Part shown: positions 6,316-27,864 of the stretch, piece by piece
Position numbering within the stretch: the stretch's first letter is position 1
Layout of the letters: each line of letters begins with the position of its first letter
Assembly: GCA_030828175.1 (NCBI GenBank)
Contig: JAURDB010000001.1
Location: forward strand, 1 to 55,778
DNA from: Flavobacteriales bacterium
Lineage (GTDB): Bacteria; Bacteroidota; Bacteroidia; Flavobacteriales_D; Sanyastnellaceae
DNA: 55,778 nt
Direction: 5' to 3'
Notes under the pieces: generated by a model
The model's database searches: none
Told to the model about the DNA's origin: nothing
What the model saw: only the letters and a program-made list of their open reading frames with translations
Made by a program: the position numbers and the translations under genes

Positions 6316-6474
6316 CTGCACTGCGACGGCAAAATCAACCGCTCCGTTTCTGAGCGGCTTAAGTTCGCATGATTCTGCTGATGGTGCCGATTGAAAGGCA
6401 TAAGCTTCCCACGCCTCATTGTGACCAAAGCCCACGTGATGCATTTCGCATCAGCGCTTCATCCCCGTATCGAG

Positions 6475-9400
6475 ATGTCAGACGGGAATCGGCGGTACAT
6501 TTCCGGCATGATTCCATTTCCTCGTGCCCTTTTGATTGCTTTGTGTTTCCTTTTGACAGGGAGCGTCAATTCCCAAATGGCCAATCCTTATGTGCATTCC
6601 GACCCCATGGAAGTGCGTTTGGCGCCACTATGGGAAACCCCCAACGAAGGACAGCAATCCCAGTGGAGAAAGACCGGATTCTGGAGTCAATTCAAGGCGG
6701 AACACCCCCTTTGGCAGGCCCAATTTCACCCTGCAACCGCCACAGTTCATAGGGCTTATGGCCCGGCCATTCCCGCATCCAACCCAACGGATTGGCTGGA
6801 GGAGCAATTGGAATTTGCAGGTTGGTCTTCCGAGCTGGGGCCTTGGAATACCGTGGCCATGGGAAAACACAACATGAGCCGCTCTGTGCAAATGGTGGAG
6901 GGTCGCGTGGTTCTGGGAACGGAGTTCGTCGTCAAGACGGCCGAATCCGGAGTGGTCATGTGGGGAGCCCAATGCTTTGAGAATGCTGCATGGCCTGAGG
7001 ACAATGCTTTTTTGGCGGAGCAGGAACTGATGGACGCGGCCACAGCCGGATTGGATTTGTCATCCATGATGGCGGCCATGGGAGAGGAGTCTCTTCTGCC
7101 CGTTTTGGAAGAGGAGGGAGAACTGCGTGTTTATGCTTTCCGTCCCGTCAAAAAAGTTCAAGTATCCGGCACGCGGGAGGACGGTACTCCCGTGCAGTAT
7201 GCCACCTGGGTGGACATGGTGACGGGTCAGGTTTGGGAACGACAGAACCAAGTCCGGCACATAGGCAAGCCGCATGGCAAGCCTGCCAAGAAGCAAGTAC
7301 TTTCCATGGGGTCCCCGGCCATGCTGCAGACACTGAATTGCCAGATCACCGGTACCGTGCATTTGACCCAGCCTTTCGAAGAAGCCGTAGAGGTCGGTCT
7401 GGAAAACCTTTGGGTTCAAACGCAACAAGGAGCAGCCAATACGGCGCAAGGAGGGATGCTCACCCTCGATGGAGATGCCCCACAGCAAATTGGCCTCGAC
7501 CTGATGGGGTTATGGAGCACGGTCACTTCAAATGGGGTGACACCCAACTTTGAGGTGACGCTGGAAGGAGACGAGGTCGTGACATGGGATGGCACTGCGA
7601 ACATTCGGGAATTGAGTGCTTATCACAGTGTGAACCGCATTCACGACCACATGCAGTCGTGGTTGCCCGGGTTTGATGGGCTTGACTTTGCATTGCCCAC
7701 ACTGATTGATGTTTCCGGGACTTGCAATGCATTCTATACCCCGGGCGACCCCAGCATCAACTTCTATTCCGAAGGCGATGGGTGCAATGCTTTTTCGCTT
7801 GTGGCCGACGTGGTTTTCCACGAGTATGGTCATGGCATCAATGACCTTTTCTACGAAAGCCTGGGGAGCTCATTCATCAATGGTGCCATGGGGGAGGGCT
7901 ACGCTGACCTTTGGGCCATCAGCCTCAGTGAAAATCCCATCTTGGGAGAGGGGTGCTACAGTGACGATGCGGAGTCGTACATCAGGCGGTACGACATGGA
8001 CCCCAAGGTGTACCCCCAGGACTTGGTCGGACAAGTGCACGCGGATGGCGAAATCATCTGTGGCGCCTGGTATGACACCCACCTCCTCATGGGTGGCGAT
8101 TGGGACCTGACGCGGGAACTGTTTGTGGAGGCCTACGCCGGGCTGCAAGCGACGAATTTCGATGGCAATGAAGGCGAGGCCTATGTGGAGGTTTTGCTGG
8201 ACGTCCTCCAGGCAGACGATGACAATGCCGACCTGTCCGATGGAACACCCAATGGTGCAGCGATCCTGGAAGGATTCGGCATCCACGGCATCACCCTGTT
8301 CAGCAATGTCGACATCGGTCACGTGGCCGAGGAGTACAGCCCTGCAGGCGACCCCATCGTCCTCGATGCCAATGCCTTGGTGCTGTTTCCCTTCAGTCAG
8401 TATTTCGGCAGTTGCAATGTCTATTACCGGAGTCACGTCTACGAGGACTGGACGGAAATGCCCATGGTTCAAACGGCCGGGAGCACCTATTCTGCCGATA
8501 TCCCCGCCCAGGAGACCGGTACCGTTCTCGAATATCATTTCGGCATCACCGACATCTATGGCTCCGTCAGCGCCATCACGCCGTACAGCGCAGACAACGC
8601 TGCAAACCCCAATTTGCCATTTAACACCATTGTGGGGCTCAGTCCTGTGCTGATTGACGATCAAGACGATTACTCCGAATTCGGCTTCTGGCAATTGGGG
8701 TTGCCTGAAGACAATGCGACCACAGGACAATGGGAATCCGCCATTCCGGTTGGTTCATTCAGCAACCCGGGCGACCCCAGTTCCATTTGCGCACCCGACG
8801 AGGACCATACGCCCGGAGACGGGATTTACGCTTTCATCACCGGAGTCAGCCCCGGAGCGGATGCCGGCATTGGTTCGAACGACGTGGATGAAGGCAGCAC
8901 CACGCTTCAGTCCGAATCCATCGACCTGACCGGATTGACCACTCCGGTTCTCAGCTATTGGAGATGGTACGTCAACGCTCCAGCCAGCGGTGCCAACCCC
9001 GGCGCCGACTGGTGGCAAGTTTCCGTGAGTTCAGACGGAGGTGAGAATTGGATCAAGGTCGAAGAAACACTGACACAAGACATCTCTTGGCGAAGGAATG
9101 CTTTTGCCATAGAAGACTACGTTCCCCTGACCGACGCATTCCAAATTCGATTTACCGCATCTGACAGCCTGCGTCCTGATCAAGGTTTGCAGTTCGATGG
9201 AGGCTCCCTGATTGAAGCAGCCGTGGATGACCTGATCATTCATGACTTTGTCACTTCCGGGCTTGCAAACCAGGACCTCGACCATGGAATTGTTGCATGG
9301 CCCGTGCCCTTCTCTGACCGACTCCATGCCGCAGGATGGAATCCAGGCACCAATGTGCGGCTGCTGGATGCCCTTGGAAAAGAGGTGGCCAAAATCCAAG

Positions 9401-9522
9401 CCGGCCCCCTGGGTGAAGTTCACTTTGACACGGCGTTGATGCCTTCGGGCGTGCATGTTCTCGAAGGCGAGAATAGACAAGGAATCCTCCGACGAAAGGA
9501 AGTGGTGAGAGCAGGCAATTGA
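6475..9522 (+). CDS. Secreted thermolysin-clan (M4/M36-like) zinc metalloprotease with MAM-like domain and T9SS C-terminal domain
   Basis: The ORF is 6391..9522. The start is probably 6475 or 6508 (signal peptide MIPFPRALLIALCFLLTGSVNSQ). The zinc motif VVFHEYGHG is followed by a downstream GAMGEGYADLW, giving a gluzincin HExxH...E arrangement. A C-terminal sorting-type beta-sandwich is present. Confidence 0.8.
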   Translation: MSDGNRRYISGMIPFPRALLIALCFLLTGSVNSQMANPYVHSDPMEVRLAPLWETPNEGQQSQWRKTGFWSQFKAEHPLWQAQFHPATATVHRAYGPAIPASNPTDWLEEQLEFAGWSSELGPWNTVAMGKHNMSRSVQMVEGRVVLGTEFVVKTAESGVVMWGAQCFENAAWPEDNAFLAEQELMDAATAGLDLSSMMAAMGEESLLPVLEEEGELRVYAFRPVKKVQVSGTREDGTPVQYATWVDMVTGQVWERQNQVRHIGKPHGKPAKKQVLSMGSPAMLQTLNCQITGTVHLTQPFEEAVEVGLENLWVQTQQGAANTAQGGMLTLDGDAPQQIGLDLMGLWSTVTSNGVTPNFEVTLEGDEVVTWDGTANIRELSAYHSVNRIHDHMQSWLPGFDGLDFALPTLIDVSGTCNAFYTPGDPSINFYSEGDGCNAFSLVADVVFHEYGHGINDLFYESLGSSFINGAMGEGYADLWAISLSENPILGEGCYSDDAESYIRRYDMDPKVYPQDLVGQVHADGEIICGAWYDTHLLMGGDWDLTRELFVEAYAGLQATNFDGNEGEAYVEVLLDVLQADDDNADLSDGTPNGAAILEGFGIHGITLFSNVDIGHVAEEYSPAGDPIVLDANALVLFPFSQYFGSCNVYYRSHVYEDWTEMPMVQTAGSTYSADIPAQETGTVLEYHFGITDIYGSVSAITPYSADNAANPNLPFNTIVGLSPVLIDDQDDYSEFGFWQLGLPEDNATTGQWESAIPVGSFSNPGDPSSICAPDEDHTPGDGIYAFITGVSPGADAGIGSNDVDEGSTTLQSESIDLTGLTTPVLSYWRWYVNAPASGANPGADWWQVSVSSDGGENWIKVEETLTQDISWRRNAFAIEDYVPLTDAFQIRFTASDSLRPDQGLQFDGGSLIEAAVDDLIIHDFVTSGLANQDLDHGIVAWPVPFSDRLHAAGWNPGTNVRLLDALGKEVAKIQAGPLGEVHFDTALMPSGVHVLEGENRQGILRRKEVVRAGN
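9289..9519 (+). other. T9SS (Por) C-terminal sorting domain of the metalloprotease
   Basis: The last ~77 aa are IVAWPVPFSDRLHAAGWNPGTNVRLLDALGKEVAKIQ...SGVHVLEGENRQGILRRKEVVRAGN. They show the usual 'P-N/V-P-F...L.D..G..V......G.Y.l' layout of type A T9SS CTDs. Confidence 0.6.
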
Positions 9523-11120: not shown

Positions 11121-11567
11121 TTATTCGCAAATGACCCCAAACTCCACCAGCAGTTGGAGGAGGTCATTGGTGCCAACGATGCCATCCGGCACGATGTCAG
11201 CCAAGCAACTTTGGTCCGTAGAGAAGACACAGGAACCATTGTCAACCTCTGCATTTGATTCATAATTGAATGCCGTGGGGTAAGTACATCCACAAGTTGC
11301 TGGATGATCCAGAATTGTGAATGAAGTGGAAGCAGTGGCACCTGAAGCGTCTTGAGCTGAGATGGTGTAATCTCCGGCAGGAAGGGCTGTTAGATCCAAA
11401 TTGGTCAGGTAGGTTACTTCACCTACCGCACCTGTCGGGGTCAATTCTACCAGACCGGTCGAACTACCAGAGCAGCGGGTGGAGTACGAAACTGCTTCAA
11501 GTGTGAATTGGGCTGAGGCTGTTGTTACGGACAACAAGAAGACCATGAGGCCGATAATCTTGGACAT
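11121..11567 (-). CDS. Small secreted protein: SprB-repeat-like domain + one Cys-framed 'CNY' module + single dockerin-like half-tail
   Basis: The ORF is 11121..11606. The start is at 11567 (MSKIIGLMVFLLSVTTASAQ). The segment CSGSSTGLVELTPTG...LPAGDYTISAQDASGATAS resembles a SprB repeat. GCTYPTAFNYESNAEVDNGSCVF is one copy of the module repeated in the neighbouring giants. The protein ends CLADIVPDGIVGTNDLLQLLVEFGVICE. Confidence 0.7.
   Translation of the reverse strand: MSKIIGLMVFLLSVTTASAQFTLEAVSYSTRCSGSSTGLVELTPTGAVGEVTYLTNLDLTALPAGDYTISAQDASGATASTSFTILDHPATCGCTYPTAFNYESNAEVDNGSCVFSTDQSCLADIVPDGIVGTNDLLQLLVEFGVICE
11124..11207 (-). other. Single dockerin-like half-module at the extreme C-terminus
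   Basis: The sequence is CLADIVPDGIVGTNDLLQLLVEFGVICE. It has one D-x-x-x-D-G-x-V-x-x-x-D-L-L segment bracketed by Cys, and the stop codon comes 1 residue after the last Cys. Confidence 0.5.
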
Positions 11568-11743: not shown

Positions 11744-14700
11744 ATGGACCAAATTCGCCTGAGCCTTTTGCTCATATACTGCTTCATAGCTGCAATCCCT
11801 CTTTCAGTTTGTGGACAGGCTTCCCCCATTTTCAATGCTTCCACCGGTACTGGATACCTGAGTATATCAGAAGCCATTCAATCCGCTTCTGAAGGGGATT
11901 TGATTACCCTGGGAGCCGTCACGTTCAACGAAAGACTCCTGATTCAAAAACCCATCACGCTCATCGGTGATGCTGCCGGGGGTACTGTTCTGGATGTGCG
12001 AGGAACCACGGGTTGGGGAATCTGGTTGGGTTCCAGTGGCATCACTATTGAGAATCTTACGGTTCTTTCGAACGTCAGCCATGAGGGATATGGTTTGCAT
12101 TGCGACCCCGGTACGACAGACCTGACGCTTCGAAATGTCCGCGTCCTCAACAACGGAACTTCTGGAATTGACCTGAATGGTCTGGTAGGTCCTGGAACGA
12201 ATTTGATTGAGGATTGTGAAGCGGTCAATTGTGCAGCTGGATTCGGTCTGGCTTTGAGCAGTTGTCAAAATGTCGTGGTCCGGAATTTCATCTCTTCCAA
12301 GAACGGTTTTGGCGACATCGGAATCCTGGAAAGTGCATACACAACAAATGATTCCGAGTCCATCACTTTTGAAGGTTCTCTTGAGCTTGATGGGCCACAG
12401 GCTGATGGCCTTGGAGGCATCATCATTCAATCCGACACCACGGTGATTGAACCGGGAATTGGCTTGGGTTTTGACATCGACATGAAGTCGGGACTGATTC
12501 ACCAATTGACAGGAACCACCACATATGACGGTGACCCATTGGGATATGTCCTCTGCAGTTCGTCCGTAGTTGCTGAACTTTCCGACAACCTTACCTCAGG
12601 ACTGGGCGTGGCTGACTTGCTCGGTCGGAATCTGGTCACCGGAGAAGTGGAGGTTTGGCCAGGGATGTCGCTTCAAGAAGCCTTGAATGCTGCCGCGAGT
12701 GATGACATCATTCGGGTGGCAAATCCGGGTCTGTACGACAGCACTGTGGTCAACGTCAACAAATCCATCACCATTCTGGGACCCAATGCTGGTTTGGCGG
12801 CCAATGATCCTGCTCGGACAACGGAAGCGGTTTTCTCAGGAGGATTGTCCATCAATGCATCGAATGTCACGGTGGATGGCATTCGACTGTTGGGGAAAAA
12901 CAATGCTCCATTTGGTCTTGAAGTCACTGCCGGAGTCACCGATGTCAATGTAAGTAACACCGTCATTCGGGGTTGGCTTGAAGAAAGTGGAGACTTCAAT
13001 GCCGTTGGCTTGCGCGCCAATGGGGGCGTCAATTTGACGGAGTGTTCGCTAAGGAACTGGCCCCTGGCTGCTGTTCTGAACAGCGGGGAAGTATCACTCT
13101 CAAATTGTCAGATTACAGACAACCGTGCAGGAGTCGAAATGAACAGTTCAAACGGGTTTTACGATGAAATGCGGGTCAACAATTGCACCCTCAGAAATGC
13201 CGGTGCTGACGCGTTCTTGATTTCGTCCACCGACCCAGCCGACAGCCTCGTGGTCATCGGGGGTACTGCCAATCTGCACTCCTACGCCTTCCGATTCGAC
13301 GACGATTGTGCCTTCAGGGTGGAAAATGGGGTCTATTCAGAATCAGAAGTGCAAATTTTGGGATTGGATACCGAGTCAAGAATCGCGCTTTGCGAGTCCA
13401 ATGACTTCAACAATCCTGCCATTGTCGTTGATGCTTGTACGGACGCATCTGCAACGAATTATGAGCCATGTGCCACCATTGATTCAGGGAACTGTTTGTT
13501 TGGTGGATGTACGGATCTCGGAGCGTGCAACTTTGACCCGGATGCAGCATCAGATGATGGAAGCTGTGAATTCCAGTCCTGTGCTGGATGTTTGAATCCC
13601 ATTGCATGTAATTACGATGCATCCGCCACCATCAGCAATGGTGGTTGTGAATTCCTTTCTTGTAGAGGATGCACGGATCCGTCAGCATTGAACTATGCCT
13701 CTTCGGCCACATATGATGACGGCTCTTGTTTGTTCCCCGGTTGCACCAACCCTGAGGCGGACAACTATGACGCAGATGCCAACTTCGACAACGGAGTGTG
13801 CTTCTTCTTTGGATGCACGGATCCCGGGGCTTGCAACTTTGATCCTCAAGCCAACTTGAACCTGGGAACCTGTGAATTCACCAGTTGTGCAGGCTGTTTG
13901 AACCCAAGGGCTTGCAATTATGATGCGACTGCGGTTATCGACGCCGGCAATTGTGACTTCACAAGCTGCAGGGGCTGCACCAATCCCGACGCATTGAATT
14001 ATGATGTGAATGCAACGGTAGATGACGGATCGTGTCGGATTCCCGGTTGTACGGATGCAACGGCCACCAATTATGATGCCGACGCCAACATCAACGACGG
14101 CTCCTGCATTTTCAGCGGCTGCCTGGATGCGTCTGCATGCAACTTCGATCCCAACGCAAGCATCAATGACGGAAGCTGCGAATTCACTTCTTGCGCAGGT
14201 TGCGCGATTGAGGGATTCTGCAACTACGACCCCAATGTCACGATACACGATGGCAGCCTTTGTGATTACTTGAGCTGTTGTGGTGACCCTGCGGCTACGA
14301 ACTACGATCCCGCCATCCTGCCTCAACTCACTTTTGGTTGTACCTACGGCATGTCAGCTGGGATGGCCTTCCTCGAGACATGCACGTTGCCCATTGCTTG
14401 CAATTACCTCGCGGATGCTCCTTGTGAATTCGACTCTTGCGCAGGTTGCACGGATGCCACTGCCTGCAATTACGACGCGGCAGCTACCCTCAGCACCAAT
14501 ACTTGCACATTCCCCATGGATCTCTACGGAGACGCCAATGTGGACTGTGACGGCAACTGCCTCAATGACACCGATGGTGACGGCATCTGCAATGAGGACG
14601 AAGTCAATGGCTGCACAGATGAGGGCGCCTGTAACTACGATGTCAATGCTACAGAAGACGACGGCTCATGTGAGACCACTTCGTGTGGTGGATGCACGGA

Positions 14701-16300
14701 TTCAGGCGCCTGTAACTTCGACAATACCGCCTTGTTGAACAATGGATCCTGCGAGTATGAGACGTGCTCGGGATGTACAGATGAAACCGCTTGCAATTAC
14801 GACGCTCTGGCTACCATCTCTGGAGAATGCACTTTCCCAATCGATACATACGGAACGGATGCTGTGGATTGTGATGGAAATTGTCTCGGCGATTCAGACG
14901 AAGACGGAGTGTGCGACGGGGATGAAATCCAAGGCTGCACGAACGCAAGTGCTTGCAATTTCAATGCAGCAGCCACGGATGATGATGGGTCATGTGACCT
15001 CCTTTCGTGCAAGGGATGCACGGACCCCACCTCCTGTAATTTCGATGCTTCAGCCACTGTTCCAGACAACAGCTGTGAGTATGAAAGTTGCGCAGGGTGT
15101 CAAGATCCGGCAGCATGCAACTATGATCCCAGCGCGACGATTGACGCGGCTTGTACTTTCCCTCTCGAGACGTACCTCGATTGTGACGGCAACTGTTTGG
15201 TTGATACAGACGGTGATGGTGTTTGTGAGCCCAATGAAGTGGGAGGATGTACCGATGCGGAGGCATGCAATTTCTCTGACACGGCAACCGACGATGATGG
15301 ATCGTGCGAATACATCAGCTGCGCGGGTTGCACCAATCCTGGCGCATGCAATTATCAGCCCTCGGCTACGATCAACGACGGAAGTTGCAATTACACTGAC
15401 TGTCAAGGATGCACCGATTCACAAGCTTGTAATTACGTTCCCGATGCCACAGTGGAAGATGGAAGCTGCATTTATGTGCTGGACCTCTACAATGTCACCT
15501 ATCTGACATGCGGGGGAGGCTGCATCAATGACACGGACGGCGACGGAGAATGCGATGAAGAGGAGCAAGTCGGTTGTTTGGATGCCTCAGCATGTAACTA
15601 CAATGCCAACGCTGAATTCGACGACGGCAGCTGCGAATTCACTTCGTGCGAGGGCTGTACCGACAATACGGCCTGTAATTACAATGAAGGCGCCCTGTAT
15701 GATGATGGAAGTTGTACCAACCCCGTCAACTTGTATGGTAAGGATTACGTCGACTGTTTCAATGTTTGTCTGAACGATGCTGACGGAGATGGCATCTGTG
15801 ATGAGGAGGAGTTGGGTTGCACCGATCCAACGGCCTGTAACTATGATCCCATTGCATCAAGCGATGACGGCTCGTGTTTCTATCCCAGTGAGGATTACCT
15901 GGATTGTGATGGAAATTGTTTGAACGATGCCGATGGGGACCTCGTTTGTGACGAGTTGGAAATCCTCGGATGTACGGACCCGGCAGCCTGTAGCTATGAC
16001 AACACAGCAACGGAAGATGACGGCTCATGTCAATATATCGTCAACGACTGTGATACATGTGTGGATGGCGTGATCGTGGATGGTGACGCCGATGATGATG
16101 GCATCTGTGATGCCGATGATGTTTGTCCTGGGGATTTCAACTCGGATGGAATCCGCAGTGCTTCTGATGTACTCGTGGTTTTGGCGGCCTATGGTTGTGA
16201 TACCGACTGTGGAGCTGCCGACCTGGACGGAAATGGTTTCGTGACGGCATCAGACGTTTTGGCCATGCTCAGTTACTTCGGTACTGTCTGCCCGAACTGA
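11744..16300 (+). CDS. Giant secreted protein (1518 aa): two right-handed parallel beta-helix domains + ~27 Cys-framed modules with TSP3-like spacers + double dockerin-like C-terminal tail
   Basis: The signal peptide is MDQIRLSLLLIYCFIAAIPLSVCGQ. There are two beta-helix starts (ISEAIQSASEGDLITLGAVTFNE...; SLQEALNAAASDDIIRVANPGLYDS...). From about aa 563 onward come tandem GCTDxxACNYDxxAxxDDGSC units and DCDGNCLNDTDGDGIC spacers. The protein ends ...VCPGDFNSDGIRSASDVLVVLAAYGCDTDCGAADLDGNGFVTASDVLAMLSYFGTVCPN. Confidence 0.9.
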   Translation: MDQIRLSLLLIYCFIAAIPLSVCGQASPIFNASTGTGYLSISEAIQSASEGDLITLGAVTFNERLLIQKPITLIGDAAGGTVLDVRGTTGWGIWLGSSGITIENLTVLSNVSHEGYGLHCDPGTTDLTLRNVRVLNNGTSGIDLNGLVGPGTNLIEDCEAVNCAAGFGLALSSCQNVVVRNFISSKNGFGDIGILESAYTTNDSESITFEGSLELDGPQADGLGGIIIQSDTTVIEPGIGLGFDIDMKSGLIHQLTGTTTYDGDPLGYVLCSSSVVAELSDNLTSGLGVADLLGRNLVTGEVEVWPGMSLQEALNAAASDDIIRVANPGLYDSTVVNVNKSITILGPNAGLAANDPARTTEAVFSGGLSINASNVTVDGIRLLGKNNAPFGLEVTAGVTDVNVSNTVIRGWLEESGDFNAVGLRANGGVNLTECSLRNWPLAAVLNSGEVSLSNCQITDNRAGVEMNSSNGFYDEMRVNNCTLRNAGADAFLISSTDPADSLVVIGGTANLHSYAFRFDDDCAFRVENGVYSESEVQILGLDTESRIALCESNDFNNPAIVVDACTDASATNYEPCATIDSGNCLFGGCTDLGACNFDPDAASDDGSCEFQSCAGCLNPIACNYDASATISNGGCEFLSCRGCTDPSALNYASSATYDDGSCLFPGCTNPEADNYDADANFDNGVCFFFGCTDPGACNFDPQANLNLGTCEFTSCAGCLNPRACNYDATAVIDAGNCDFTSCRGCTNPDALNYDVNATVDDGSCRIPGCTDATATNYDADANINDGSCIFSGCLDASACNFDPNASINDGSCEFTSCAGCAIEGFCNYDPNVTIHDGSLCDYLSCCGDPAATNYDPAILPQLTFGCTYGMSAGMAFLETCTLPIACNYLADAPCEFDSCAGCTDATACNYDAAATLSTNTCTFPMDLYGDANVDCDGNCLNDTDGDGICNEDEVNGCTDEGACNYDVNATEDDGSCETTSCGGCTDSGACNFDNTALLNNGSCEYETCSGCTDETACNYDALATISGECTFPIDTYGTDAVDCDGNCLGDSDEDGVCDGDEIQGCTNASACNFNAAATDDDGSCDLLSCKGCTDPTSCNFDASATVPDNSCEYESCAGCQDPAACNYDPSATIDAACTFPLETYLDCDGNCLVDTDGDGVCEPNEVGGCTDAEACNFSDTATDDDGSCEYISCAGCTNPGACNYQPSATINDGSCNYTDCQGCTDSQACNYVPDATVEDGSCIYVLDLYNVTYLTCGGGCINDTDGDGECDEEEQVGCLDASACNYNANAEFDDGSCEFTSCEGCTDNTACNYNEGALYDDGSCTNPVNLYGKDYVDCFNVCLNDADGDGICDEEELGCTDPTACNYDPIASSDDGSCFYPSEDYLDCDGNCLNDADGDLVCDELEILGCTDPAACSYDNTATEDDGSCQYIVNDCDTCVDGVIVDGDADDDGICDADDVCPGDFNSDGIRSASDVLVVLAAYGCDTDCGAADLDGNGFVTASDVLAMLSYFGTVCPN
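13430..16120 (+). repeat. Coding tandem-repeat array: ~27 degenerate 23-27-codon Cys-framed modules organised in ~108-codon super-repeats
   Basis: I counted the units by eye in the translation. The recurring consensus is [S/T]-C-x-G-C-T-[DN]-x-x-A-C-N-[YF]-[DN]-x-x-A-x-x-[DN]-D-G-S-C-x-[YF]. The 3' half (about 14440-16120) adds a DCDGNCLxDxDGDGxCDxxE spacer after every 1-3 units. Confidence 0.85.
16121..16297 (+). other. Cysteine-framed double dockerin-like C-terminal tail
   Basis: The sequence is VCPGDFNSDGIRSASDVLVVLAAYGCDTDCGAADLDGNGFVTASDVLAMLSYFGTVCPN. It has two EF-hand-like D-x-N-x-D-G-x-[IV]-x-x-S-D-V-L segments and 4 conserved Cys, and it lies at the extreme C-terminus. Confidence 0.7.
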
Positions 16301-16348: not shown

Positions 16349-16415
16349 GCTTGTGGACATTCGATGAATTTCGAATTTTATTCGACCGAACCGCTCGAAT
16401 GATATACAAATGACC

Positions 16416-16423
16416 TATATTTG
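16416..16423 (+). promoter_or_regulatory. Bacteroidota-type -7 promoter box (TAnnTTTG) for the 16443 gene
   Basis: TATATTTG lies 20 nt upstream of ATG 16443 in an AT-rich spacer. Its position inside the longer ORF (16410) supports the start at 16443. I saw no clean -33 TTTG. Confidence 0.4.
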
Positions 16424-16442
16424 TAGTCGAAAGTCATATATT

Positions 16443-19379
16443 ATGCCTCGAACTCTATTCTCATCGCTGCTCTGTCTCTTGATGGCACCGATCATGGCCC
16501 AATCGGAATCCACGCAGCCCGTGACAAACGTGACGACCGGCGCAACTTTTGAAACCATTGCAGAGGCCTTGAACGTGGCGTCATCTGGTGACGTTTTGAA
16601 TTTGGCTGGTTACAGGTTTACAGAACACATTGCAATCGATGTACCTCTCACCTTAACGGGAGCAGAAGGTGGGACCACGGTCATTGACGTGTCGCAGCAG
16701 GATGGCTGGGGAATTACCCTTTCAAGCGACAACATCACCTTGAAAAACCTGTCCATCCTCGCCGGTGATGTGAATACGGCATATGCCATCCACAGTGAAC
16801 CCGGAATCACGGGGCTCACATTGGAAGACATAGCGGTTTACGATTCCCACAGAACATGCATTGACCTGAATGGATTGACGGGGCCGAGCGTAAATACCCT
16901 GAGAAACCTGACTGTTTCAGGCAGTTCCATTGGATTTGGCCTCGCCATGAGTTCCTGTTCCAACATGTTCATCGAGAACATCACGAGTTCAGACAATGGT
17001 TACGGTGACATTGCCATTATGGAATCCAATTACTATGACCAAGAAATATCCGACGTGGTATTCACTGGATTCCTTGATTTGGAGGGGCCTCAGAATTTGG
17101 GGGGAGGTGGCATTATTGTTCAGGTGAGTCCTGAAGAAGTGCCGGTTGGCGCCGGAGCAGGTTTTCCCATCAGCGTCAATTCAACGGGTTTTGATTACCT
17201 CTTGGAAGCACCCGGAGATTTGACCGGATGCATTTTGGTGCACAGTGAGGACGTCAGGGCCATTGCCCAGACACTCGGTGCAAATGTGACCCCCTTGGTA
17301 TCCTATGACTTGGTTACGCAAAACCTCGTCGTTTTCCCCGGGATGTCCATTCAAAGTGCCCTGGATGCAGCCTCCGATGGGGACGTCATCGAGGTGGACC
17401 CCGGATCCTTTGATTCTACTCCGTTGCAGATTGCGGGCAATGTCACCTTGAAAGGAGCCAACGCTGGTATTTCAGGGACTTCCACAGCCCGATCATCGGA
17501 AACGCTGGTGCAAGGCATTGTCGTAACGGATGGAACACCGCTCATCGACGGCATCCACATTTCCGGTGGAGCTGGAACCGCTGGACTCGTCGTTATGGAA
17601 GCAGCCGCCGGAGTGGAATTGCGCAACAGCATCATTTCTGGAAATGGGACGGAAACCGGTGTGATCTGCAGGAATTCATCCTTGCTGCACGATGTCGTAG
17701 TCGAAAGCTTTGACAAAGGCATCCAACATCTCTCTGGGGCATTGGTCATGGAATCCAGTGTCATCAAGGGAAATGGCACGGGGGTATCCATCGAGCACAC
17801 GTCTTCTTTTGCCGAAACCACCACGCTGCAAAACTGCCAACTGTTGAACACCGGTGGAACCGGCATCCTCGTTCAGTCGGGCGGGTCAAATGACCTGTTG
17901 ACGATTGAAAATTCCACGATTGAATTGCACGCCACAGGCTTGAACGTGACCGGCGACATCTCCCTGGCCATAAGCGGCAATGTCTTTGTGAATTCAGAGG
18001 ACCACACGATGGGCCTTGACAGGGAAGCCAGAATCGCACTTTGCGGCAGCAATGGATTCGAACCCGCTTTGCGCATCAACGGATGCACAGACAACAACGC
18101 AGACAATTTTGAGCCATGTGCCACTGTGGACCAAGGATGTGAATTTCATGGATGCACGGCACCCAAGGCTTGCAATTATGATGCCTCGGCGACGACCGAC
18201 GACGGAAGCTGTGACTTCATCACCTGTTCGGCTTGTCCACTGGGATTTGCCTGCAATTATGATCCCGATGCCGACCTCTACCGAGTAGAAGCATGTGAAT
18301 TTCTGGACTGCGGGGAAGGCATGGCAGGCAGTGGGGAAGACAGGGGCAATCTCGCTGTGGTAGAGGGGTGTACCATTCCACAAGCCTGCAACTTCAACCC
18401 GAACGCCGATTCTGACGATGGGAGCTGCAATTTTGGATGCTATGGCTGCCAAGATGAAGCCGCGTGCAATTTCGATGCAGTGTTTACCCAAGCTTCCAAT
18501 GAAACGTGCCTGTACCAGCAGGACCTGCACAATTCACCCTACGTGGGCTGTGACGGGGCATGTGTGAACGACACCAATGAAAATGGAGTGTGCGATGAAG
18601 AAGAAGTCACAGGCTGTACGGATGAGGGGGCTTGCAATTTCAGCGCTTCCGCCACTTTGGATGTCGGAGATTGTGAGTATGCATCCTGTGCGGGTTGCAC
18701 CAATCCGGGCGCTTGCAACCACGATCCCTCGGCCACCCTTACGGATGCTTCTTGTGACTACACTTCTTGCGCTGGATGCACGGATTCAGGGGCGTGCAAC
18801 TACAACGCGATGGCCAGCATCGATGATGGCACTTGTTCCTATCCCATCGACTTGTACAACAAGCCATGGGTGGACTGTACGGCGACTTGCCTGAATGATG
18901 CCGATGGCGATGGCGTTTGTGATGAGGAGGAGACCAGCGGTTGCATGGAGAGTGGTGCGTGCAATTACGATGAGGAGGCGACCGACGACGATGGAACGTG
19001 CGAATATGAGTCTTGCTCAGGATGCACGGATGACGCCTACTGCAATTTCAATCCAGGCGCCACCATCAACGACGGAAGTTGTGCGGCTCCGGAAGACCTG
19101 TTCCCCAATGCCATTGTGGACGGAGTTTCCACGGTGGACTGTCTCGGACGCTGTCTCAATGATGAAGATGGCGATGGGATCTGTGATGAGGCAGAAATCG
19201 TCTGTCCTGGAGACCTCAATGGAGACGGTCTCCGGGGAGCTTCAGACATTCTTGTGATGTTGAGCGCCTTTGGGTGCACGGAGGGATGCGGATCACCAGA
19301 TTTGAATGGAGACGGCATCGTCGCTGCCAGTGATGTCCTGATGGCCCTTTCCACCTTCGGGGTGGCATGTCCTCAGTAA
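16443..19379 (+). CDS. Giant secreted paralogue (~978 aa): two beta-helix domains + ~11 Cys-framed modules with TSP3-like spacers + double dockerin-like tail
   Basis: The ORF is 16410..19379. The start is at 16443 (MPRTLFSSLLCLLMAPIMAQ). It is collinear with the 11744 protein across the beta-helix head (e.g. GWGITLSSDNITLKNLSIL vs GWGIWLGSSGITIENLTVL; GFGLAMSSCSN vs GFGLALSSCQN). It ends VCPGDLNGDGLRGASDILVMLSAFGCTEGCGSPDLNGDGIVAASDVLMALSTFGVACPQ. Confidence 0.9.
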   Translation: MPRTLFSSLLCLLMAPIMAQSESTQPVTNVTTGATFETIAEALNVASSGDVLNLAGYRFTEHIAIDVPLTLTGAEGGTTVIDVSQQDGWGITLSSDNITLKNLSILAGDVNTAYAIHSEPGITGLTLEDIAVYDSHRTCIDLNGLTGPSVNTLRNLTVSGSSIGFGLAMSSCSNMFIENITSSDNGYGDIAIMESNYYDQEISDVVFTGFLDLEGPQNLGGGGIIVQVSPEEVPVGAGAGFPISVNSTGFDYLLEAPGDLTGCILVHSEDVRAIAQTLGANVTPLVSYDLVTQNLVVFPGMSIQSALDAASDGDVIEVDPGSFDSTPLQIAGNVTLKGANAGISGTSTARSSETLVQGIVVTDGTPLIDGIHISGGAGTAGLVVMEAAAGVELRNSIISGNGTETGVICRNSSLLHDVVVESFDKGIQHLSGALVMESSVIKGNGTGVSIEHTSSFAETTTLQNCQLLNTGGTGILVQSGGSNDLLTIENSTIELHATGLNVTGDISLAISGNVFVNSEDHTMGLDREARIALCGSNGFEPALRINGCTDNNADNFEPCATVDQGCEFHGCTAPKACNYDASATTDDGSCDFITCSACPLGFACNYDPDADLYRVEACEFLDCGEGMAGSGEDRGNLAVVEGCTIPQACNFNPNADSDDGSCNFGCYGCQDEAACNFDAVFTQASNETCLYQQDLHNSPYVGCDGACVNDTNENGVCDEEEVTGCTDEGACNFSASATLDVGDCEYASCAGCTNPGACNHDPSATLTDASCDYTSCAGCTDSGACNYNAMASIDDGTCSYPIDLYNKPWVDCTATCLNDADGDGVCDEEETSGCMESGACNYDEEATDDDGTCEYESCSGCTDDAYCNFNPGATINDGSCAAPEDLFPNAIVDGVSTVDCLGRCLNDEDGDGICDEAEIVCPGDLNGDGLRGASDILVMLSAFGCTEGCGSPDLNGDGIVAASDVLMALSTFGVACPQ
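18081..19198 (+). repeat. Coding tandem-repeat array (~11 Cys-framed modules, 3 TSP3-like spacers)
   Basis: The units run GCTDNNADNFEPCATVDQGCEF / GCTAPKACNYDASATTDDGSCDF / ... / GCMESGACNYDEEATDDDGTCEY / SCSGCTDDAYCNFNPGATINDGSC. The spacers are GCDGACVNDTNENGVCDEEE, DCTATCLNDADGDGVCDEEE and DCLGRCLNDEDGDGICDEAE. Confidence 0.85.
19199..19376 (+). other. Cysteine-framed double dockerin-like C-terminal tail
   Basis: The sequence is VCPGDLNGDGLRGASDILVMLSAFGCTEGCGSPDLNGDGIVAASDVLMALSTFGVACPQ, with the same 4-Cys frame as 16121..16297. Confidence 0.7.
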
Positions 19380-19477: not shown

Positions 19478-22400
19478 ATGCGCCGCCCCATCCCCAATCC
19501 GTGGCGGGAGAATTGCCCTTGGCTTGCCATTCTTCTGGCAGGGTGGTGGATGTGTGGCCCAATGGCAATGCAAGCCCAGCATTGGAGCGATGGACTGCTT
19601 CCAGGCGCGGATTGGACCGCGGCATTCGATCAATTCGATAGCACCTGGCAGGACAGCATCCCTGAAAAAGGAAAAGGGTTCAAACCCTTCATGCGATGGC
19701 GAGAATTCGCAGAAAAGCGTTTTGCCTTTGAGGGGAGCGAGGAATGGTCGCCCAACGCCCCTTGGCAAGCCACACAGTGGGAAAGAGAAGGCAGGGCGGC
19801 CCGAACCCAGCCCCCGGATACGCTGTGGAGAAGCGCTGTACCCGCTGGGGTTCCCCTGGTGGGCGGAGCCGGACGCGTCAATCGGGTGGTGGTCCACCCC
19901 CTTGATACCAGCCGATGGCTCGCCTGTGCACCGAGTGGTGGACTCTGGCAATCGCAAACATCCGGCAACAGCTGGTCTCTCATGGGAACGCAGGATTGGG
20001 CGGGAATGGGGGTTTCTGACGCCGCTTTCCATCCAAACGACCCCGATTGCATACTGGCGGCCACGGGGGATTCCGACTTCGGAAGTGCATACGCCATTGG
20101 GCTGATGCAAACCTGTGATGGCGGAAACACCTGGAGTCCCACAGGACTTCAGTTCGAAATGGAGCAAACCTTGACCTGCAGCCGCGTTCATCGAAAGGCG
20201 GGGGACCCCCAACAGATCCTTGTGGCCACAGGCGATGGCATCTGGTTGAGCGAAGACGACGGCGTTACGTTCAGCAAGACCTTGGAAGGGGTTTGTTCCG
20301 ACCTGATTCCCCACCCGGGCGATTCAGCAGTATGGCATGCAGCGCGCAGGCCAGGAGAGTTGTTTCGATCGACCGATGGCGGACGCCATTGGGAGTCCAT
20401 TCCCGGAATGCCCTCGGCGTATCTCGCCAGTCGATATGTGCTTGCCACGACACCTGCCGACCCCTCTCTTGTAGCCGCCATCGCATCCAAGAGCGGAAGC
20501 CAAGGATTGCTTGGGTTGTACCTCAGCGCAGACAGCGGAGCGACTTTCTCTGCACTGCCGGATTTGCCCAACCTGTTGGGGTGGACCGCAGACGGCTCCG
20601 ATTTGGGCGGGCAAGGCTTTTACGACCTCGCCCTGGCCGTGGACCCGACCGACCCCCATCATATGGTGGCAGGGGGTGTCAACCTCTGGGAGACATGGGA
20701 CGGGGGAGTGTCCTGGAACTGCACCGGCCATTGGTTTGGGGGAGGAGAGGCGCCATACGTGCATGCAGATCACCATGCTGTGACCTTCATTCCAGGGACC
20801 TCCGACTGGGTCAGTGCACATGATGGAGGCGTCAATCGATTGGGCGCAGCACAAAATGTAGACCTGAGCGAAGGCCTCGAGGTAGGACAGGTATATCGAC
20901 TGGCTTGGTCCGAGGCACAGCCGAACCAACTCCTCTCAGGAGCGCAAGACAATGGGATCAACCTCCTCAAGGACGGAGTGCATGCACAGGTCATCGGCGC
21001 CGATGGTTTTCACTGTTTGATCGATCCGGATGCACCAGACAACCTGATTGCATCAGAGTACTATGGCAAGGCACACCGCTCTACGGATGGTGGATGGAGC
21101 TGGGCTCCGTGGATATTGAGCAACGGGGACGGGGTGAACGAGCAGGGAGATTGGAACACCCCCTTGGCCCAGTCTCCCGTGGTTCCCAATCGAATCCATG
21201 TTGCAAAACACAGGGTTTATTGGACCGACGATGCAGGCATTACTTGGGGACAAACCCAGGCTTTGCCTGGTAATGAAATCGAAGTCTTGGCATTGTCGTT
21301 CACCGAAGACAGCATCCTTGCGGTGGCCAAGGGAAGCTTCGCTTTCATCACCCATGACCTGGATCAATGGACCCCTTTGACTGGGTTGCCCGGCATGCCC
21401 GTCCAAGACCTTTTGTTCGATGCGGGTTCTAGTGATGTGCTGTGGATGGCCTTCGGCGGATATTCGGCAGATGATCGCATCTGGCAATCTTTGGATGGGG
21501 GGGATTCCTGGGATTCATTCAGCGAGGGATTGCCCGCTTTGCCTGTCAATGCGCTCACCCAGGACCCAGGATCTGGAGACCTGTACGCAGGAACAGACGC
21601 TGGAGTCTATGTGAGGCCAGCGGGAAGCAGCAGCTGGACACCCTACAAATCAGGCCTGCCTGAAGTGCTGTGCAGCGACATCGGCATTCGACAGTCCACC
21701 GGGGAATTGCTGCTGGCGACCTACGGCAGAGGTCTTTGGAAAGCACCACTGCATACCCCCCCTGCAAGGGATGCAGGGATTGTTGCCATCCATGGGACGA
21801 AAGCTGTGAGATGTTCTGGCCCGCTTTCAGTTGCGACGGAAGTGCGCAATTGCGGCAGTGACACGTTGGTGGCAGTGAGTTTGCTCTGGAATGGAACAGA
21901 CACCGTTACCTATGGAATGCTGCTTCCACCCAATGCCGAAACGAGCCTGAATTGGCCCAACAGCTCCAGGGCTGCGGTTCCGGCAGGAGATCAGCTCGTG
22001 GTCCGCATTGTCAATGTGGTCGGCGCCGATGGAAATTGGAGCCAGGGAACCATTGAGTCTGGATTTGATGACGTGCCGGAAAACGATGTCTTGGGTGCAA
22101 CCTGGGAACACAGGGAGGGAACGGGGTGGGTGACCATGTCCACACTCGCAGACTGCAACCCCAGGGAATCTGCATGGGCCATCGCGGATACCACTGGCGA
22201 AATCCAATACCGAAGACAACATTTCCCCATCGAGTTGGCCATCATGGATTCACTCTGTTTGGGCCACGGATGCTATGAAGTCGTGCTGCATGACCAATCC
22301 CAAAATGGGTTCGCCGGGCCTCAATGCGGTTCACTCGGGTCCATGGAGCTTCTGTCTGCAACAGGCGACACGATTTGGTCCTTGTTGGACCCATCCTCTG

Positions 22401-22726
22401 CAGGGGTTGCATTTTCATCAGGCCTGGGCGGATCATTTTGCTTGCCGATGGCCGGGTGGGTAGGATGCACTGAGCCTGGCGCATGCAATTTCAACCCGGC
22501 TGCCTCTGTCGATGACGGCACCTGCATCATGGAATGCCACGACGCGCAGCCATGTCCAGAGGACCTCGATGGAGATGGCCTGTACGGAGCAACAGACATA
22601 CTGGCTGTGCTCTCCGAATTCGGCTGTATGTCAGGTTGCAGCATGGACATCACCGGCGACGGAACCGTATCTGCCAATGACGTCCTTGCCTTGTTGGCAT
22701 TGTACGGCGAATCATGTGTCCCATGA
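19478..22726 (+). CDS. Secreted BNR/Asp-box beta-propeller protein (sortilin/Ycf48-like) + Ig/CARDB-like region + one Cys-framed module + double dockerin-like tail
   Basis: The ORF is 19442..22726. The likely start is 19478 (MRRPIPNPWRENCPWLAILLAGWWMCGPMAMQAQ). There are at least 8 Asp-box-like S/T-x-D-x-G-x-[TS]-[WF] motifs (CDGGNTWSP, SEDDGVTFSK, STDGGRHWES, SADSGATFSA, TWDGGVSWNC, STDGGWSWAP, TDDAGITWGQ, SLDGGDSWDS). The C-terminus is GCTEPGACNFNPAASVDDGTC...PCPEDLDGDGLYGATDILAVLSEFGCMSGCSMDITGDGTVSANDVLALLALYGESCVP. Confidence 0.85.
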   Translation: MRRPIPNPWRENCPWLAILLAGWWMCGPMAMQAQHWSDGLLPGADWTAAFDQFDSTWQDSIPEKGKGFKPFMRWREFAEKRFAFEGSEEWSPNAPWQATQWEREGRAARTQPPDTLWRSAVPAGVPLVGGAGRVNRVVVHPLDTSRWLACAPSGGLWQSQTSGNSWSLMGTQDWAGMGVSDAAFHPNDPDCILAATGDSDFGSAYAIGLMQTCDGGNTWSPTGLQFEMEQTLTCSRVHRKAGDPQQILVATGDGIWLSEDDGVTFSKTLEGVCSDLIPHPGDSAVWHAARRPGELFRSTDGGRHWESIPGMPSAYLASRYVLATTPADPSLVAAIASKSGSQGLLGLYLSADSGATFSALPDLPNLLGWTADGSDLGGQGFYDLALAVDPTDPHHMVAGGVNLWETWDGGVSWNCTGHWFGGGEAPYVHADHHAVTFIPGTSDWVSAHDGGVNRLGAAQNVDLSEGLEVGQVYRLAWSEAQPNQLLSGAQDNGINLLKDGVHAQVIGADGFHCLIDPDAPDNLIASEYYGKAHRSTDGGWSWAPWILSNGDGVNEQGDWNTPLAQSPVVPNRIHVAKHRVYWTDDAGITWGQTQALPGNEIEVLALSFTEDSILAVAKGSFAFITHDLDQWTPLTGLPGMPVQDLLFDAGSSDVLWMAFGGYSADDRIWQSLDGGDSWDSFSEGLPALPVNALTQDPGSGDLYAGTDAGVYVRPAGSSSWTPYKSGLPEVLCSDIGIRQSTGELLLATYGRGLWKAPLHTPPARDAGIVAIHGTKAVRCSGPLSVATEVRNCGSDTLVAVSLLWNGTDTVTYGMLLPPNAETSLNWPNSSRAAVPAGDQLVVRIVNVVGADGNWSQGTIESGFDDVPENDVLGATWEHREGTGWVTMSTLADCNPRESAWAIADTTGEIQYRRQHFPIELAIMDSLCLGHGCYEVVLHDQSQNGFAGPQCGSLGSMELLSATGDTIWSLLDPSSAGVAFSSGLGGSFCLPMAGWVGCTEPGACNFNPAASVDDGTCIMECHDAQPCPEDLDGDGLYGATDILAVLSEFGCMSGCSMDITGDGTVSANDVLALLALYGESCVP
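22550..22723 (+). other. Cysteine-framed double dockerin-like C-terminal tail
   Basis: The sequence is PCPEDLDGDGLYGATDILAVLSEFGCMSGCSMDITGDGTVSANDVLALLALYGESCVP. Confidence 0.7.
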
Positions 22727-25056: not shown

Positions 25057-25797
25057 ATGCAGCCCGGAATCATACGCGTCCCCTTGGCCCCCATCCGCAA
25101 GGAAGCGGATGACCGTTCGGAAATGGTAACCCAGGCTTTGTTCGGGGAAGCTGTTGAATGGGAAGTGACAGAGGCGACAGGATGGGTCCGGGTCCGTTTG
25201 ACCCGTGATGGATACACCGGATTCACAGATGAGAAACTGATCTCATCAGCGCCGGACGCCCTGGATGCGTTTGGTGAGGACACCACGACGTTGCAGGCCC
25301 CTCTGACCATGCTGGAATGGATGGGAAGGCCTTACCACCTTCCGGCGGGGTCGCGGGTTCCGAAAGCCATATGGCCACACACCTCGCCCCCTGTGCAGCT
25401 GCCAGTGGAAGTCGCCGCCCAATTCCTCGGCGCGCCCTACCTGTGGGGCGGAAAAAGCGTTTTGGGCATCGATTGCAGTGGCTTGACCCAATTGGGCTGT
25501 TTCCTCTGTGGATGGGAGCTGCCTCGCGACGCCTCTGACCAGTGGCGCGCGCTGGCGCCGTCACAGGTTCTTTTCGATGACCTTGCACACGGGGACTTGG
25601 TCTTCTTTCACAAGGTCAGCCCCGAGAAGATCACCCATGTGGGATTCGCATGGAAGCCCGAGGGACAACCCATGGGCGTTCTTCACGCATCTGGAGAAGT
25701 CCGCATTGACGCCTTGGACGATGGAGGAATCACGCGCGGGGGCGAGAGGACCCATCATTGGACCGGCGCTGCCCGCCTACCGGTCACTCTTGGATGA
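25057..25797 (+). CDS. NlpC/P60 (C40) family peptidoglycan peptidase with SH3-like N-terminal domain
   Basis: 246 aa. The motif LGAPYLWGGKSVLGIDCSGLTQ carries the catalytic Cys, and a downstream ITHVGF carries the His. The gene begins 3 nt after the thiolase stop codon. Confidence 0.85.
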   Translation: MQPGIIRVPLAPIRKEADDRSEMVTQALFGEAVEWEVTEATGWVRVRLTRDGYTGFTDEKLISSAPDALDAFGEDTTTLQAPLTMLEWMGRPYHLPAGSRVPKAIWPHTSPPVQLPVEVAAQFLGAPYLWGGKSVLGIDCSGLTQLGCFLCGWELPRDASDQWRALAPSQVLFDDLAHGDLVFFHKVSPEKITHVGFAWKPEGQPMGVLHASGEVRIDALDDGGITRGGERTHHWTGAARLPVTLG

Positions 25798-27360: not shown

Positions 27361-27864
27361 TCAATCTTTCGTCAGCGGAATCTTGATTCCCTCAATGGGG
27401 CATCCCACGGCGTCGGTGCGCGGCACACTCACGGGCACGCCTGCCATCAACTCGGAAAGGGCCTCGTGCAGGTCCCTGCGGCGGGTGCGGTTCTTTCGTC
27501 TGCCGGGAGCGAAGTACCGGTCATTGATCCGCCCTCGGTAGACAACCGAGTCCCGGGCATCCAGAACGAAAACTTCGGGTGTCCAGAGGGCTCCCAGCCG
27601 TTCCGCCCATCCGGAAGTATCGGGCTGCAGAGACATGGAGAGTCCATATACGGCGTCGAATTCCGCAATCTGCTCTGCACGTGTGGAGGGGTTGGGAAAC
27701 AAGCCCACGAACGCCACGGGGGCATCCGCGAATTCCAATTCCATTGTGCGCAGGTCGTAGGTCATGTCCTGGCATATCGGACACAGCGGTGCCAGGAAAA
27801 TCAGGACGCGATAAAGGGCCGAAGAAGGGGACACAGCAGACACCAATTCAACAGCTGTCACCAA
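27361..27864 (-). CDS. Thioredoxin-fold redoxin (AhpC/TSA-like) with CPIC motif
   Basis: 167 aa. It has VLIFLAPLCPICQD (CxxC) in a thioredoxin-like context and sits between the two PHM-like paralogues. The ATG start lacks an obvious signal peptide, and the ORF overlaps the upstream gene by 17 nt, so the start is uncertain. Confidence 0.65.
   Translation of the reverse strand: MVTAVELVSAVSPSSALYRVLIFLAPLCPICQDMTYDLRTMELEFADAPVAFVGLFPNPSTRAEQIAEFDAVYGLSMSLQPDTSGWAERLGALWTPEVFVLDARDSVVYRGRINDRYFAPGRRKNRTRRRDLHEALSELMAGVPVSVPRTDAVGCPIEGIKIPLTKD

Follow-up and report, generated by a model that had tools for sequence, protein, structure and literature searches.

Why should six otherwise different exported proteins, encoded within one stretch of a bacterial genome, all end in the same short module framed by cysteines? 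The question is raised by 55,778 nucleotides of DNA from a Flavobacteriales bacterium of the Sanyastnellaceae (assembly GCA_030828175.1, contig JAURDB010000001.1, positions 1 to 55,778; henceforth referred to as the window, meaning the whole stretch that was analysed). A preliminary description of this DNA had noticed the six tails and proposed them as a sorting or anchoring module. Here we present evidence that the tail is a predicted dockerin-fold domain, which on homologous proteins alternates with the C-terminal domain of the type IX secretion system (T9SS), and we favour, on balance, a function as a Ca2+-dependent docking handle.

Six tails with a predicted dockerin fold

The translated ends of the open reading frames (ORFs) show that six proteins of the window share the C-terminal module, which is present as five full tails and one half tail. 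The five complete copies are 56-59 residues long and follow the layout C-P-x-D-x-[ND]-x-D-G-...-D-[VI]-L-x-x-L-x-x-[FY]-G-C-x-x-x-C-x(2,3)-D-x-x-G-[DN]-G-...-D-V-L-x-x-L-x-x-[FY]-G-x-x-C, and in all six tails the final Cys lies 0-2 residues from the stop codon. A hidden Markov model (HMM) trained on the five full tails and searched against the six-frame translation of the window recovered these with E = 1e-27 to 1e-30 and the half tail with E = 2e-6; no seventh copy was found in the window, where all other matches were no better than E = 3. Four of the full tails are regular: tail A (16121-16297, plus strand; 59 amino acids with four Cys, ending ...FGTVCPN; 97.3 bits with the tail HMM), tail B (19200-19376, plus; ...FGVACPQ; 99.1 bits), tail C (22550-22723, plus; ...YGESCVP; 99.2 bits) and tail D (27851-28018, minus; ...FGDSC; 93.0 bits). 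Tail E (33540-33719, plus; ...FGEGC; 88.9 bits) has a degenerate first loop, DLNEDLF, which lacks the Gly at position 6, and its first Cys is displaced 4 residues further upstream. Tail F (11124-11207, minus; ...FGVICE) is a single half module that covers positions 24-56 of the HMM and consists of one Ca2+ loop and a helix between two Cys (C-x-x-D...FG-x-x-C). The translations and the HMM thus bear out the earlier observation of six such tails on six exported proteins, with five of the tails located correctly and the start of tail B displaced by one base (given as 19199, whereas the in-frame start is 19200); likewise, the motif proposed earlier fits the tails in general, the exception being the first half of tail E. 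The degenerate DNA pattern FGCxxxCxxD[x][ND]x[ND]G was found 2 times in the window against 0.00 expected from shuffles. Since the copies are only 47-58% identical in pairwise DNA comparison and 41-61% identical in protein, they are neither an assembly artefact nor the product of recent duplication, and by this divergence we regard them as old and maintained by selection. Single half modules recur as C-termini elsewhere, namely in P0463 and in the loci L041 (3155-4570, minus) and L118 (5904-6908, minus); it may be speculated that a lone half module has to pair up, perhaps in a disulfide-linked homodimer that would imitate a full dockerin.

The five full tails align with the NCBIfam model NF041540 ('GC-type dockerin domain-anchored protein'), with the alignments ending at the last Cys and covering positions 1-67 of 67 in tails A-D and 13-67 in tail E. 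The scores (A 23.1, B 23.0, C 28.1, D 26.0 and E 22.7 bits) all fall short of the curated cut-off of 29, which is passed by relatives in metagenome-assembled genomes (MAGs) of other Flavobacteriales (L044, 36.2 bits; L006, 39.9 bits) and is approximately reached (E ≤ 1e-6) by 10 of 73 single-copy representatives of the subfamily. The Pfam model Dockerin_1 (PF00404; gathering threshold 22.9 bits) gave 19.8 bits for tail A (residues 1462-1511 of its carrier), 13.6 for B and 13.9 for E, no match for C and D at E ≤ 0.1, and matches at E ≤ 1e-3 in 26 of the 73 representatives. When PDB sequences were searched with the tail profile, the single full-length match was the dockerin 2Y3N_B (E = 3.9e-7), and the other matches listed were mostly to calmodulin-type Ca2+-binding proteins over one loop only. 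An AlphaFold2 model of tail A, computed from a 79-sequence alignment (mean predicted local distance difference test score, pLDDT, 84.9), has two helices, no sheet, and a beta-bridge I16-V61 that joins loop 1 to the residue before the last Cys. Foldseek comparison of this model with the PDB returned dockerins at all of ranks 1-24, the best being 2y3n_B (template-modelling score 0.79; root-mean-square deviation 1.5 A over 58 columns), and in a full-length AlphaFold2 model of carrier D the tail helices are placed at residues 440-448 and 468-476. In alignments the tail resolves into two tandem Ca2+-type loop-helix segments (one in tail F) with D or N at loop positions 1, 3, 5 and 12, apart from the degenerate loop 1 of tail E; across 79 sequences neither loop departs from Asp at positions 1 and 12, and both halves conserve helix residues and, at loop positions 10-11, a pair of small residues, [AV][STN]. 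Matches to EF-hand_1, EF-hand_6 and EF-hand_7 were sub-threshold and no entering helix is predicted, as in dockerins. Overall, because the NF041540 alignment, the AlphaFold2 model and the exclusively dockerin top 24 fold matches agree, the tail is identified, from sequence profiles and predicted structure, as a dockerin-fold domain of GC type, a sub-threshold member of the NF041540 class.

This identification upholds the dockerin-likeness first noticed in the tail halves, and it also means that the tail is not an unrecognised module: NCBI has already curated the domain class, so its existence is not new. Literature searches found no publication describing a GC-type dockerin family, and the papers that pair dockerins with T9SS or Flavobacteriales describe no such tail in their titles and abstracts. 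Two other identities were tried and rejected. The models of the T9SS type A and type B C-terminal domains (TIGR04183 and TIGR04131), a check proposed at the outset, gave no match to the tails even at E ≤ 10, and this result, together with a predicted fold that is helical and not a beta-sandwich, rules out a T9SS C-terminal domain; an LPXTG or PEP-CTERM signal is ruled out by the lack of a hydrophobic stretch or basic cluster and by the end of the protein 0-2 residues past the last Cys.

Within its class the window form has features of its own. In common with NF041540 it has a Gly-Cys signature, lies at the C-terminus and is laid out as two Ca2+ loops; it is about 11 residues shorter than the 67-position model, which also scores internal multi-copy 'GPC' arrays (for example P0131, 54.9 bits), whereas the window form is single, terminal and has four Cys. 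With the cellulosomal dockerin 2Y3N of Pseudobacteroides cellulosolvens it has in common the predicted fold, the duplicated loop-helix unit and the FG after each helix, and in cellulosomal dockerins, too, positions 10-11 of both loops are taken by small residues. It differs from them in its four conserved Cys, in the 7 residues between the first FG and the second loop (12 in 2Y3N), in the lack of a cohesin match or cellulosome context in the window, and in its carriers, which belong to an aerobic, marine, Gram-negative lineage and comprise peptidases, oxidoreductases and beta-helix proteins.

Counted by HMM columns, all four Cys are in register in 291 of 304 distinct tails. Solved dockerins have an internal two-fold symmetry, by which loop 1 starts close to where the last helix ends and helix 1 ends close to where loop 2 starts, and from which the pairs C1-C4 and C2-C3 are predicted. 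Joint losses follow these pairs (C2 and C3 in L101 and L102, C1 and C4 in L088), and the modelled bridge I16-V61 adjoins C4, in agreement with a C1-C4 pair; a single Cys is missing in four tails, and in several others a seeming loss is a Cys that has moved by one to three positions. This pattern suggests two disulfides, of which C1-C4 would tie the termini together and C2-C3 would close the linker.

Occurrence of the tail and its exchange with the T9SS domain

At E ≤ 1e-3 the tail profile has matches in 15,082 representative clusters, and the stricter limit of E ≤ 1e-10 leaves 906; the top cluster matches are of two kinds, multi-copy dockerin-like arrays that are often internal and single-copy modules. 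Of the 73 single-copy representatives, 70 have no more than 2 residues after the module, and the four Cys are retained in nearly all. A scan of public genomes with a degenerate DNA pattern over GTDB species representatives found at least 120 loci; as the pattern is specific to CxxD spacing, per-genome counts are minimum values. Six-frame analysis of these loci gave at least 149 tail-bearing ORFs, with two or more tail genes in at least 32 loci, as in the window, and at least 4-7 tail proteins in each of several MAGs. Among the matches listed, all records are MAGs, and of the 127 full tails on contigs labelled Bacteroidota, 126 stand at the C-terminus. The single-copy, four-Cys terminal form is, on these sequence counts, typical of uncultured marine Flavobacteriales, in which it constitutes a large subfamily. 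The proteins that carry it are diverse (S8, M12 and trypsin-like peptidases, a choice-of-anchor B protein, redoxin, PAD and beta-helix proteins), and their signal-peptide rate is about equal to that of T9SS-tailed homologues, the failures being mostly truncated N-termini. The terminal position seen at first in six proteins is almost always kept, and the tails proved neither frequently internal nor attached to proteins devoid of signal peptides. Exceptions to the terminal rule are P0173 and P0263, in which a FISUMP domain comes after the tail. Four-Cys terminal tails were also found on high-GC contigs (0.56-0.72) labelled Phycisphaerales or Planctomycetota, one of them a complete chromosome. 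Planctomycetota are not known to possess a T9SS; this occurrence and the occasional internal copies speak against a signal dedicated to the T9SS. Tails on MAGs labelled 'Methanobacteriota archaeon SP189' or Comamonadaceae (L012, L033, L006 and L103) closely resemble those of Flavobacteriales, and for that reason these records are probably mis-binned contigs and not a sign of a wider host range.

An informative comparison within the window is between carrier D (27848-29296, minus) and its paralogue two genes away, D' (25784-27313, minus). The two proteins are 69% identical over 417 residues (BLASTP) and diverge exactly at the C-terminal linker, after which D ends in the dockerin tail and D' in a T9SS type A domain (residues 442-508, approximately 25790-25990; TIGR04183 27.9 bits against a cut-off of 23, PF18962 25.2 bits). 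The same alternation is seen more widely. The passenger of D has 963 homologues at E ≤ 1e-10; among the best 120 of these, approximately 70 have a dockerin tail, one has a half module and most others have a T9SS-like tail, 27 of the latter with a precomputed PF18962 match, and the T9SS-tailed homologues include the cultured Sanyastnella coralliicola. Among the best 120 homologues of the passenger of carrier C (19478-22726, plus), 49 have the dockerin tail, most others have PF18962 and none has both; the dockerin is present in all homologues of at least 53% identity and in some of about 35%, and most of the more distant ones have PF18962. Judged from these homologues, the dockerin tail and the T9SS type A domain exclude each other as alternative endings in two passenger families that are unrelated. 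They share the extreme C-terminal position and the passenger families, and they differ in that the type A domain (TIGR04183/PF18962) is a beta-sandwich whereas the tail is predicted to be helical, has no sequence match to it and also occurs in Planctomycetota contigs. Since the nearest homologues carry the dockerin and the wider Bacteroidota the T9SS domain, the latter is probably ancestral and the dockerin a lineage-specific replacement.

In a distant homologue of the C passenger, P0565, a VPS10-type domain occurs together with a cohesin (PF00963) and a T9SS C-terminal domain, so that cohesin-bearing T9SS cargo exists in the VPS10 passenger family. The low-GC-like composition of P0565 suggests another, low-GC lineage, and it is probably not from the carrier MAGs; it could be the kind of surface-anchored receptor that a GC-type dockerin would bind.

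The carrier proteins and their setting

Given the right start codons, all six carriers have signal-peptide-like N-terminal segments. Carrier A (11744-16300, plus) is an exported protein of 1518 amino acids, the N-terminal stretch of which resembles NosD through a partial TIGR04247 match far under the model cut-off. It is followed by carrier B (16410-19379, plus), an exported right-handed beta-helix protein of 989 amino acids (PF13229, PF05048; signal peptide ending ...IMAQS), and by carrier C, a VPS10/sortilin-type propeller protein (PF15902, NF045728) of about 1082 amino acids when its start is set at MRRPIP, as in the 99%-identical P0489. Carrier E (33027-33722, plus) is an exported Cys-rich protein of 231 amino acids with a signal peptide ending ...ALAQC and a MopE-type metal-binding motif (PF11617), a family that also matches 8 of the 73 single-copy relatives of the tail, and carrier F (11121-11567, minus) is an exported protein of about 148 amino acids, its start set at MSKIIG, with a weak SprB-repeat match. 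The carriers' named relatives all come from MAGs labelled Flavobacteriales, Crocinitomicaceae or Bacteroidota.

Carrier D, exported by a signal peptide and 482 amino acids long, and its paralogue share a passenger with no Pfam or PDB sequence match, in which an N-terminal CxxCH haem motif is accompanied by invariant His/Met motifs. Foldseek matched the AlphaFold2 model of D (pLDDT 85.3) to peptidylglycine alpha-hydroxylating monooxygenase (PHM) and dopamine beta-hydroxylase (DBH) at E = 9e-14, and the passenger looks like a secreted bacterial cytochrome-c/PHM-like copper monooxygenase, with the haem-binding CxxCH preceding a predicted PHM/DBH-like fold. By exact look-up of the carrier D protein, the same locus was placed on four public contigs (JGI metagenome 3300018415, ENA and Logan assemblies); the same kind of look-up had no record for carrier B or for the thiolase. 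Between D and D' lies a small ORF (27361-27864, minus) with weak sub-threshold redoxin/AhpC-TSA matches, which in its longest frame shares 17 nucleotides with the 3' end of D and is annotated as 134 or 166 amino acids in other assemblies; the arrangement of D, small ORF and D' is kept on three other assemblies, and the fourth contig stops just past the small ORF.

The segments that precede the tails are also distinctive. Asp-rich DGDGICD motifs (MopE/thrombospondin type 3-like) come directly before tails A, B and E (approximately 16080-16120, 19150-19199 and 33440-33530, respectively), and Cys-rich repeats of the form GCT(D/E)PxACN(Y/F)xxxAxxDDGSC lie just upstream of tails C (approximately 22470-22540, plus) and F (approximately 11210-11290, minus). 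The same repeat occurs in many tandem copies in P0263, and these repeats look like disulfide-rich linker units.

By Pfam, the window also encodes a TonB-dependent receptor with a CarboxypepD_reg-like domain, housekeeping genes and canonical T9SS cargo, and its Pfam matches as a whole point to a piece of a Bacteroidota chromosome. The end segment of an M36-like peptidase ORF (6391-9522, plus) resembles, by eye, a T9SS C-terminal domain, and a beta-helix ORF of 509 amino acids (46014-47543, plus) has a lipobox-like LSGC after its signal sequence; on account of these two ORFs the window seems to mix several export classes.

A proposed docking handle and its alternatives

The reading that we favour, with moderate confidence, is that the tail is a Ca2+-dependent docking handle by which diverse Sec-exported proteins are tethered to a shared putative envelope receptor. 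The handle would be a compact dockerin-fold domain of two EF-hand-like Ca2+ loops, each followed by a helix, with the halves joined by an unusually short CxxxC linker. Carriers would be exported by Sec, in keeping with their signal peptides; the tail would then fold with Ca2+ and become oxidised in the periplasm or outside the cell, and would dock unrelated enzymes and adhesin-like proteins onto one common receptor, cohesin-like or other. On many cargo families of the lineage, two of which are documented above, the handle would have replaced the T9SS type A domain and taken over at least the surface-retention half of its job. A docking handle is the best supported reading; it fits the curated label 'anchored' and the choice-of-anchor behaviour observed here, and a function independent of T9SS would explain the four-Cys terminal tails in Planctomycetota contigs. 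A comparable system is the 'planctosome' proposed for Phycisphaerae, in which secreted M12B and M14 peptidases with non-cellulosomal dockerins would attach to proteins of the envelope that bear cohesins (Andrei et al. 2019, PMC6461901). Both cases involve non-cellulosomal dockerins on secreted peptidases of aquatic Gram-negative bacteria; they differ in phylum and in that cohesin proteins were identified there and none was found here, and the planctosome is itself still a hypothesis (PMC6461901).

Several points weigh against a docking handle. The first is the receptor. No cohesin (PF00963) was detected when 36 ORFs of the window, nearly all of its long ORFs, were scanned with Pfam, and a phmmer search with the cohesin segment of P0565, a single-sequence query, had no match in the window or in the at least 120 loci, in line with the preliminary description, which had found no cohesin-like partner in the window either. 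Cohesin is also absent from the 25 most frequent Pfam families among 107 ORFs neighbouring tail genes in Bacteroidota loci and from the listed most frequent families among 42 Planctomycetota neighbour ORFs, although in both sets a cohesin present in a single ORF could be hidden. Furthermore, docking alone leaves unexplained how large carriers that have lost their T9SS domain cross the outer membrane of a Bacteroidota cell, the window tails score below both curated thresholds (29 bits for NF041540 and 22.9 bits for PF00404), and the case for the disulfide pairing, made from three instances of co-loss and a predicted model, is weak.

In the main rival explanation, export or sorting would be signalled by the tail itself, either to the T9SS as a third, non-beta-sandwich class of C-terminal signal or to another outer-membrane translocon, and the tail would directly take over the secretion function of the type A domain. 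Such a signal would supply the outer-membrane passage otherwise left without an account, and on carriers that otherwise bear a Sec signal only. A strictly terminal position would suit it as well, but a FISUMP domain follows the tail in P0173 and P0263, and closely related modules are internal and in tandem arrays. A connection with T9SS is suggested by the exclusivity with PF18962/TIGR04183 in two passenger families and in the window paralogue pair, by the likeness of the carriers to T9SS cargo (peptidases, PAD, beta-helix and SprB-repeat proteins), and by canonical T9SS cargo genes being the commonest neighbours of tail genes (in the 107 ORFs, the most frequent family is Por_Secre_tail with 7, ABC-transporter domains come next with 6 each, and 4 ORFs have SprB repeats); against this have to be set the helical Ca2+-binding fold predicted for the tail, which is unlike the beta-sandwich of T9SS domains, the failure of the type A and type B models to match, and the presence of the four-Cys terminal tail in Planctomycetota-labelled contigs. 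We consider an export signal unlikely on these grounds. The original idea of a sorting or anchoring module hence survives in part: the tail sits where homologues carry the T9SS sorting domain, and anchoring by docking is the better supported half. The likening to sorting signals such as LPXTG, PEP-CTERM or the T9SS C-terminal domain fares worse, the tail being predicted as a folded, helical, Ca2+-binding domain that is also found in Planctomycetota contigs and sometimes has another domain after it. We give only slight credence to a further reading in which the dockerin would define a second Bacteroidota route to the surface, either as a new and structurally unrelated T9SS signal class or by piggyback, whereby folded cargo would bind a cohesin-like T9SS substrate while still periplasmic and be co-translocated and co-anchored with it.

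It is also doubtful that the tail acts without a protein partner, as a cap stabilised by Ca2+ and disulfides or as a binder of non-protein ligands, such as polysaccharide of the cell itself, glycans from algae or mineral surfaces. The search for a partner gene would agree with this explanation, in that neither cohesin nor any other recurrent candidate stood out among the most frequent families listed for the 107 Bacteroidota and 42 Planctomycetota neighbour ORFs from the at least 120 loci. Dockerin-like modules outside cellulosomes for which no cohesin is known are widespread (Peer et al., as cited in PMC6461901), and the 15,082 clusters matched by the tail profile are very diverse in architecture. 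A stabilising cap would, however, hardly call for conservation of the helix residues and the [AV][STN] pair in both halves, which goes beyond the needs of stability and is like that of cohesin-contacting dockerins; moreover, the tail has been swapped with an anchoring and sorting domain and not simply lost. Finally, chance or compositional similarity of Asp/Gly-rich, Cys-containing ends, to which tails that are short and rich in D, G and L might be thought prone, or an assembly artefact, is refuted by the HMM E-values, matched by nothing else in the window, by the shuffles, by hundreds of independent homologues in public genomes and by the reproduction of locus D on four independent assemblies.

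The thresholds of NF041540 and PF00404 miss most copies of the tail, including all six of the window, and the tail is a ready marker with which to catalogue the exoproteome of uncultured Flavobacteriales lineages. At about 56 residues, with Ca2+ dependence and probably a disulfide lock (both predicted), it could serve as a compact docking tag if its receptor were found. What is new is that abundant ocean Flavobacteriales appear to have systematically swapped the T9SS sorting domain for a dockerin on peptidases, oxidoreductases and adhesin-like proteins. The extracellular enzymes of these bacteria must be displayed or released by some means that lies outside current models of Bacteroidota secretion, which has a bearing on how these Flavobacteriales process marine organic matter.

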